Origin: Escherichia coli
GTDB taxonomy: Bacteria; Pseudomonadota; Gammaproteobacteria; Enterobacterales; Enterobacteriaceae
Strand: one strand, 5' to 3'
DNA: 25,373 bases
NCBI RefSeq assembly: GCF_003334765.1
Contig: NZ_QOWT01000045.1
Shown here: piece after piece, positions 24,951 through 25,373 of the stretch
How the letters are laid out: each line of letters begins with the position of its first letter
Numbering within the stretch: the first letter of the stretch is position 1
The notes under the pieces: model-generated
What the model saw: only the letters and a program-made list of their open reading frames with translations
Database searches by the model: none
What the model was told of the DNA's origin: nothing
Position numbers and translations under genes: made by a program

Positions 24951-24975
24951 TTTCAAAATATTCCGCTATTTGCTT

Positions 24976-25001
24976 CCAATGCAAAACATATATTGCATTG
25001 G
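24976..25001. repeat. Perfect 9-bp inverted repeat 26 bp after the hydrolase stop: candidate terminator hairpin or operator
   Basis: CCAATGCAA-aacatata-TTGCATTGG (arms 24976..24984 and 24993..25001), followed by an AT-rich stretch with CATATTTTTG. Confidence 0.4.
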
Positions 25002-25373
25002 GAGCATATTCATATTTTTGTTATTCTTGTATGAAATCGTCTCATGTACACGGTCCTTTTTTCGCCGAAAACTGATATTACTTTAATCAAAAGTTGACGT
25101 GCCAGATTCGAAGTAAATTTATAAAATATCAAATCAATATACATTTTGCACCTTCGAGATAGTAATGGCTGTTACTGTAACATGAGTTACAAACAGCTTC
25201 ATACCCAGAGCTACTGATGTATCAACATGATTCAACAATACCCGATATTTATTCCATGCCTCCAGCAACGATCTTTCTTCCTCCGTTGCGATTTCCCAGC
25301 ATCCTGCAGTGGCGCAATATACTCACTGAATTCCTGGATGTAGAACTGTGTGGTGACGGTCTTCCAGCCATTC

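Follow-up and report, generated by a model that had tools for sequence, protein, structure and literature searches.

We find that positions 24951-25373, at the right-hand end of the window (the whole 25,373-nucleotide stretch of Escherichia coli DNA that was analysed), are very probably an ordinary prophage mosaic junction: at the 3′ boundary of a hydrolase cassette, a probable terminator hairpin is followed by an AT-rich spacer and a pseudogene of tfaX. The features on which this reading is built are the following.

24948-24950, plus strand: TAA stop codon of the hydrolase, ending the gene of a 494-amino-acid secreted α/β hydrolase at 23466-24950 (open reading frame list, sequence).
24971-25006, plus strand: hairpin, the putative intrinsic terminator of the hydrolase transcript (folding, relatives, lineage L022, shuffles).
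25007-25027, plus strand: U-rich tail after the stem (TATTCATATTTTTGTTATTCT), in agreement with terminator-like criteria (sequence).
25007-25200, no strand: AT-rich non-coding spacer of about 190 bp, GC 0.32 (alignments, family searches).
25094-25127, plus strand: promoter-like hexamers, either TTGACG (25094-25099) with ATTTAT (25117-25122) or GTGCCA (25099-25104) with TAAAAT (25122-25127).
25134-25268, minus strand: second frame, with the rest of the Tfa homology, which reads on into the spacer; the canonical end is replaced at about 25201.
25201-25342, minus strand: DNA of the 3′ third of a lambda-type tfa, equal to residues 31-77 of the 101-amino-acid ORF of phage Turner, with a 7-bp deletion (AGATCTA) between 25296 and 25297.
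25227-25343, plus strand: 38-codon ORF antisense to the tfa remnant, without a family match and judged spurious.
25232-25373, minus strand: frame seen in the initial annotation, which covers the final 46 codons of an ORF of 66 codons, with the stop at 25232-25234.
25322-25373, minus strand: the portion, inside the window, of the tfaX N-terminal segment that is not Tfa (residues 21-37), with homology to the phrog_3893 N-terminus.

The gene order of the window is hokE/sokE - ... - pheP - cusABFC - cusRS - nfrBA - ybcH - envY - ompT - α/β hydrolase. From 21857 to its end, the window shares 99.8% identity with the viable lambdoid phage 2G7b and 99.5% with phage Turner, both of which have the order int - attP - ompT - hydrolase - tfa remnant - methyltransferase - tail fibres. 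The identity to these phages starts abruptly, between envY (which ends at 21813) and ompT (which starts at 22326), and position 21857 corresponds to 14 nt past the stop codon of the phage integrase. We read 21857 as the attR-side junction between prophage and host, with ompT and the hydrolase placed inside phage DNA. The 99.8% identity to 2G7b further argues that the feature sits in the accessory arm, beside attR, of a DLP12-family lambdoid prophage. ARAGORN found no tRNA in the window, and a literature search on phages 2G7b and ev243 turned up nothing relevant.

The 474 bases around the feature are present in many complete E. coli genomes at 99.6-99.8% identity. The closest genome is that of E. 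coli TO6 (NZ_LS992166.1), where the match to the last 6.4 kb of the window is almost perfect (100.0% identity after rounding) and where a near-complete lambdoid prophage, with tail, head, lysis and Q genes, lies to the right of the window-equivalent region. In the TO6 record (L005 22480-41813), the terminase-to-capsid block and the lysis block each occur twice, with frameshifts in one copy, which reflects either a duplication in tandem of part of the prophage or an error of the assembly. Past the feature, a ybcY-type methyltransferase is encoded on the plus strand from window-equivalent 25489. The same slot in K-12 holds tfaX - appY - ompT; the AraC-type appY is replaced here by the hydrolase cassette. 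The hydrolase (23466-24950, plus strand), which adjoins ompT in viable phages, has a signal-peptide-like N-terminus, and its sole informative matches are phrog_20134, of unknown function, and the prolyl aminopeptidases, to which the similarity is weak (TIGR01249, E 5e-9, far under the curated cutoff). At the far left of the window (241-396, minus strand), an Rfam match to the sok antitoxin RNA (RF01794; 84.4 bits, above the gathering score of 59) indicates a hok/sok-type toxin-antitoxin locus, which, from the K-12 gene order, we take to be hokE/sokE.

The initial annotation had described an unrecognised frame that enters on the minus strand from beyond the window end. We reproduced its C-terminal peptide letter for letter, with the stop at 25232-25234 rather than at 25241. 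In the rightward extension provided by TO6 and ST3, the frame runs for 20 more codons to an ATG, with an in-frame stop 12 codons above. The resulting 66-codon ORF starts 59 nt beyond the window (ATG at window-equivalent 25432 in near-identical genomes), and its ATG is preceded by AAGGGGTTAA, a plausible Shine-Dalgarno sequence (AAGGGG, 4 nt before the ATG). The initial annotation had named as refuting a frame that is interrupted immediately beyond the window and lacks homologs; the frame does end soon past the edge, but its homologs number in the hundreds. One database relative (P0069) has the identical 66-amino-acid frameshift product but for one substitution.

Alignment and position identify the frame as a frameshifted allele of tfaX of the K-12 cryptic prophage DLP12 (b0563, between ybcY and appY). 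Like K-12 tfaX, the window remnant adjoins a divergent ybcY-type methyltransferase, and the two are near-identical in DNA from the ATG via ...APLQDA to ...SLLEA, with an identical N-terminus. K-12 tfaX differs from the window in that it keeps 7 bp (AGATCTA) that are missing here between 25296 and 25297, is truncated by a different frameshift at codon 61, and has the appY cassette next to it, whereas the window remnant goes out of frame after codon 45 through the 7-bp deletion and borders on the hydrolase cassette, which is oppositely oriented. The 7-bp gap is the sole gap relative to both K-12 tfaX and Turner, and the 7 bp are also retained by the intact tfa of a diverged hydrolase lineage (L022). 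The residues after ...APLQDA are therefore out-of-frame nonsense. The Tfa-like continuation lies in another frame (25134-25268) than the peptide of the initial annotation, so the homology is split over two frames; at window-equivalent 25134-25339, PGAP indeed annotates a 'tail fiber assembly protein; frameshifted; missing N-terminus', that is, a pseudogene. The initial annotation was right that the peptide is not the C-terminus of an AraC-type protein, an expectation that arises because K-12 has tfaX - appY - ompT in this slot; the peptide belongs to a tfaX-type remnant of a tail fibre assembly gene. Its suggestion of further prophage cargo holds in so far as this is prophage DNA, but a new cargo gene leaving the window edge can be rejected, since the ORF has only 66 codons, starts 59 nt past the edge and is the tfaX remnant. 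The feature is thus already known: tfaX is annotated in E. coli K-12, and PGAP labels the pseudogene here.

The 7 bp are retained in K-12 and in 11 of the 15 sampled loci that carry the spacer; where they are kept in hydrolase-linked loci, as in Turner, an unbroken 101-codon ORF results. The viable phage 2G7b, in contrast, has the same frameshift as the window. Relatives in the databases are 55, 61, 66, 68, 82, 89 or 101 amino acids long, with different frames and junctions at their ends. The frameshift in 2G7b, together with ORF ends that vary freely between strains, points to a dispensable scar.

We used the unbroken Turner ORF to place the remnant within the tail fibre assembly proteins. 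It matches Pfam PF02413 (Caudo_TAP) with E 1.1e-17, over model positions 75-121 of 131 only, as well as the tail-fibre-assembly families phrog_105, phrog_188 and phrog_136 (E 1e-12 to 3e-15) and residues 123-166 of the Mu protein TfaMu (PDB 5YVQ_B, E 1e-7); its match to phrog_2341 is full-length (E 5e-56). At the DNA level, the remnant is 75% identical to the intact 193-amino-acid tfa of L022. In comparison with lambda Tfa and Mu TfaMu, what the repaired ORF shares with the family is the C-terminal part, at its residues 31-77. The profile match is thus significant for the repaired ORF, over part of the domain, with the frame broken in the window. Unlike members of PF02413, the window remnant has neither the N-terminal two-thirds nor the last ~12 residues, and has no adjacent tail fibre gene: instead of following directly on a co-oriented tail fibre gene, it is separated from the tail fibre genes by the methyltransferase and a second tfa remnant. 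The 89-amino-acid relatives retain the canonical Tfa end ...VDTSTAPDIEWPANPVRE, which is missing in the window. The canonical C-terminus, ...APDIEWP..., is replaced here, and DNA homology to the L022 tfa runs down only to 25201. As the frame reads spacer from that point on, the hydrolase cassette must join inside the last codons of the remnant.

The other end of tfaX is also foreign to Tfa. Its first ~36 residues match the N-terminus of phrog_3893, an uncharacterised family of 79-amino-acid phage proteins, and an intact 79-amino-acid phrog_3893 ORF with the same N-terminal match is found in Klebsiella phage Kp4882-3 (L025 1504-1743, plus strand). tfaX-type ORFs are thus chimeric scars of recombination, combining a phrog_3893-type N-terminus with the C-terminal third of Tfa. 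The Kp4882-3 ORF lies directly upstream of, and overlaps, a UmuD-like gene (L025 1679-2071, plus strand), and phrog_3893 may be a family of small phage proteins associated with SOS or mutagenesis. In L022, a 220-amino-acid gene on the minus strand (4212-4874; phrog_808, of unknown function) lies between the hydrolase hairpin and the intact 193-amino-acid tfa; its ...ICPVALCEPETG... motif is reminiscent of NleG-type U-box effectors.

On the plus strand over the tfa remnant, the 38-codon ORF noted at 25227 is present (25227-25343); neither it nor an 80-codon plus-strand ORF of TO6 has homologs. PGAP labels 27 plus-strand codons at window-equivalent 25334-25414 (L001 6435-6515), antisense to the tfaX N-terminus, as a 'DinI family' fragment. 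Plus-strand translations of 41, 56 and 80 amino acids had no match in PHROGs, NCBIfam or PDB, the 27-amino-acid fragment itself being too short for such searches to decide, and the strand opposite the fragment matches phrog_2341 and phrog_3893. In gathering mode, nothing in this part of the window reaches an Rfam threshold. Below threshold, the tfa remnant matches, on the minus strand, the whole model (positions 1-199) of IS009 (RF02111), a candidate sRNA for which an association with phage sequences has been described (bioRxiv 10.64898/2026.05.13.724894), with E 7.5e-18, yet the score of 79.5 bits is under the gathering score of 117. A second sub-threshold IS009 match falls on the other tfa remnant; the model therefore appears to pick up DNA derived from tfa and not a particular RNA gene.

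The 9-bp perfect inverted repeat reported after the hydrolase was found where it had been placed, with arms CCAATGCAA (24976-24984) and TTGCATTGG (24993-25001). A perfect repeat of at least 9 bp with a loop of 3-10 nt occurred in 1.7% of 3000 dinucleotide shuffles of 24951-25373, so the repeat exceeds chance. It forms the core of a longer stem of 14 bp (24971-24984 with 24993-25006) with an 8-nt loop (24985-24992), which starts 21 nt 3′ of the hydrolase TAA. The stem has 6 G-C pairs in its 14 bp, and the RNA folds at -21.5 to -24.5 kcal/mol (z = -4.8; none of 200 shuffles was as stable). T24975 pairs with G25002 as G·U in the window. This T is private to the window, a C-to-T substitution in the 5′ arm: each of the 14 sampled relatives with this hairpin sequence has C, giving a G-C pair and making all 14 pairs Watson-Crick. 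Directly 3′ of the stem lies TATTCATATTTTTGTT. With a scan criterion of at least 5 T in an 8-base window beginning 0-2 bases past the stem, the hairpin and tail on the plus strand satisfy the terminator-like pattern; the minus-strand version of the hairpin is without a U tail directly after the stem. The only known RNA families found on the hairpin with Rfam were microRNA models, judged meaningless. We also noted a 21-nt inverted repeat, 81% complementary, between 24980-25000 (hairpin and loop) and 25130-25150 (the end of the read-through frame of the tfa remnant), which by a rough estimate is borderline relative to chance.

An IMG/VR scan with the hydrolase returned only sequences 93-100% identical at the protein level, with three types of flank. 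L022, with a hydrolase of 93% identity and a flank of only 71% identity, retains the stem: pair 24972-25005 is changed on both sides from G-C to A-U, and the innermost pair is lost. Compensatory change that conserves the structure was thus seen on one pair across two lineages. In a third lineage (L019-L021), an unrelated GC-rich hairpin followed by TTTTATT lies directly after the hydrolase stop. Every hydrolase lineage, then, has a terminator-like element at this position, even where the sequence has been swapped, as expected of a terminator that closes a phage accessory-gene cassette. Since the stem is kept with one compensatory change in a diverged lineage, the hairpin is most likely a rho-independent terminator of the hydrolase transcript, possibly of an ompT-hydrolase transcript, an assignment we infer from structure, position and that one compensatory pair. 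Termination could be weak, as the tail is interrupted (UAUUCAUAUUUUUG) with no clean U-run, and about half of the stem is G-C.

Rho-independent terminators are known to close the accessory-gene cassettes (morons) of lambdoid phages. The putative terminator in the window resembles these moron terminators: a stem-loop and its U-rich tail come immediately after the stop codon of an accessory gene whose transcription runs against the late operon. It differs from them in its long stem of 14 bp, only about half of which is G-C, and in its interrupted U-tract. The GC-rich hairpin module of L019-L021 (CCGCAGCACG...CGTGCTGCGG) has a copy in L001 (7256-7300), without the T-run, after the methyltransferase; one module thus ends two distinct accessory genes, each in another phage. 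It seems that terminator modules are exchanged either along with the cargo genes or on their own. A sub-threshold match to the Rfam family CssrB (32.6 bits versus 76) overlaps the module on the minus strand.

Downstream of the hairpin the DNA is AT-rich, as the initial annotation had described: the GC content of 24951-25206 is 0.32, lower than in the hydrolase gene (0.42) and in the window overall (0.505). The first 45 nt of the spacer, to 25051, align with L022, and homology stops there. Positions 25052-25200 are known only in this arrangement, by blastn in distant mode and, in agreement, by sensitive blastn against all fetched loci, and matched no protein or RNA family. The spacer (25004-25215) occurs in 1220 places in 1207 of 5426 complete E. 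coli genomes, at 95-100% identity, and is single-copy where present; with all copies so similar, their conservation says nothing against a small functional element in 25052-25200. We rejected two possible origins of the spacer: as a decayed copy of the 220-amino-acid gene of L022 (tblastn was empty even at E 100), and as an AraC-type (appY) remnant (K-12 appY and its flanks do not align).

The AT-rich spacer raises the possibility that the region is regulatory, with TTGACG acting as a working σ70 promoter for a plus-strand RNA, either an antisense RNA or a leader for the downstream methyltransferase (the ybcY homolog), ~390 nt away. The letters of the σ70-like element are as the initial annotation gave them, one base to the right (25094-25099). 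The -35 hexamer matches the consensus at 5 of 6 positions, several A/T-rich -10 candidates lie 17-22 nt downstream, and the methyltransferase, from window-equivalent 25489, is the next gene on the plus strand. Moreover, at K-12 tfaX/appY, AT-rich, horizontally acquired spacers are bound by both H-NS and RNA polymerase and give rise to transcripts (PMC4469952, PMC3661553). The window spacer is likewise AT-rich, lies beside tfaX and has promoter-like hexamers; unlike that K-12 'promoter island', however, it lies between two convergent 3′ ends, has no recognisable sequence homology to it, and is not enriched in promoter-like sites. Our scan asked for -35 and -10 hexamers 16-18 nt apart, with A2 and T6 in the -10. 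TTGACG-17-ATTTAT fails it, the -10 hexamer matching at 3 of 6 positions and lacking A at position 2; the scan lists instead GTGCCA-17-TAAAAT (25099-25127), which matches at 9 of 12 positions. Promoter-like sites numbered 5 in 22000-25373, compared with 10.3 ± 2.9 in shuffles, and 4 in the extended locus, compared with 4.5 ± 2.2. Neither TTGACG nor the TATAAAAT letters could be aligned in L022. No plus-strand gene follows the motif for ~390 nt, and the methyltransferase has a nearer promoter candidate, TTAACC-16-CATAAT, in the ybcY/tfaX divergent spacer at window-equivalent 25433-25488, where genomic SELEX in K-12 showed RpoD holoenzyme to bind in vitro (PMC3946193). At chance level and not conserved in L022, the promoter-like hexamers look incidental; we found no evidence for the proposed regulatory region, and consider a working promoter here very unlikely.

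Two further explanations concern the remnant and the palindrome. The tfaX-type chimera (phrog_2341) could instead encode a small protein that is really made and that viable phages retain for some function, for example interfering with or tuning tail-fibre assembly, the window allele having been inactivated recently. This would fit the retention of the 7 bp in most of the sampled loci, the unbroken ORF of Turner, clusters of 101-amino-acid and 82-89-amino-acid members numbering hundreds, the Shine-Dalgarno-like AAGGGG, a candidate divergent promoter ahead of the ORF and the binding of RpoD holoenzyme to the K-12 ybcY/tfaX spacer. The ORF, however, is unstable in length (55-101 amino acids across strains), the pattern of a decaying scar; it has only the C-terminal third of the Tfa domain and is differently truncated, at 61 amino acids, in K-12; and 2G7b is viable with the frameshift of the window, so an intact ORF is dispensable for phage growth. 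We therefore hold such a protein to be unlikely, as we do a weaker variant of this reading, in which the AT-rich spacer would host an unannotated small RNA antisense to the chimera. The palindrome, in turn, could be a protein-binding or recombination site, either an operator or the terminus of a mobile cassette by which the hydrolase arrived, considering that a mosaic boundary is near (the L022 homology ends 45 nt downstream, at 25051) and that a 21-nt partial inverted copy of the loop region, with 81% complementarity, occurs at 25130-25150. Yet the change from G-C to A-U keeps pairing and not sequence, which fits an RNA or DNA hairpin better than a site for a sequence-specific protein; the hairpin lies 21 nt past a stop codon with a U-rich tail on the sense strand only; the adjoining spacer is single-copy in its carriers; and no transposase or recombinase gene is adjacent. 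To this explanation we give the least credence.

Taken as a mosaic junction, the region would have the following history and function. The hydrolase would be an accessory-gene cassette, or moron, in the accessory arm of a DLP12-family prophage, and the stretch studied here the 3′ boundary of that cassette. The 14-bp stem-loop with its U-rich tail would end the hydrolase, and possibly the ompT-hydrolase, transcript, and would be followed by ~190 bp of AT-rich non-coding spacer, in which the promoter-like hexamers would be incidental. On the opposite strand lies the best documented part, a non-functional tail-fibre-assembly remnant orthologous to tfaX. This remnant is a recombination scar of three pieces: ~36 codons from an unrelated small phage gene (phrog_3893), ~45 codons from the conserved C-terminal part of Tfa, and a lost end, the junction with the hydrolase cassette at about 25201 having removed the true Tfa C-terminus. 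The 7-bp deletion further shifts the frame, producing the unrecognisable peptide tail noticed in the initial annotation.

The significance of these results is mainly one of annotation hygiene. They fix the right boundary of the hydrolase cassette, as stop codon, terminator hairpin and junction at about 25201, and they account for the odd peptide at the window edge as frameshift nonsense from a known pseudogene, tfaX. Opposite tfaX, the 'DinI family' label given by PGAP receives no support from profile searches. Finally, ompT and the hydrolase lie inside a block 99.8% identical to viable lambdoid phages, which provides context for the hydrolase as phage cargo.
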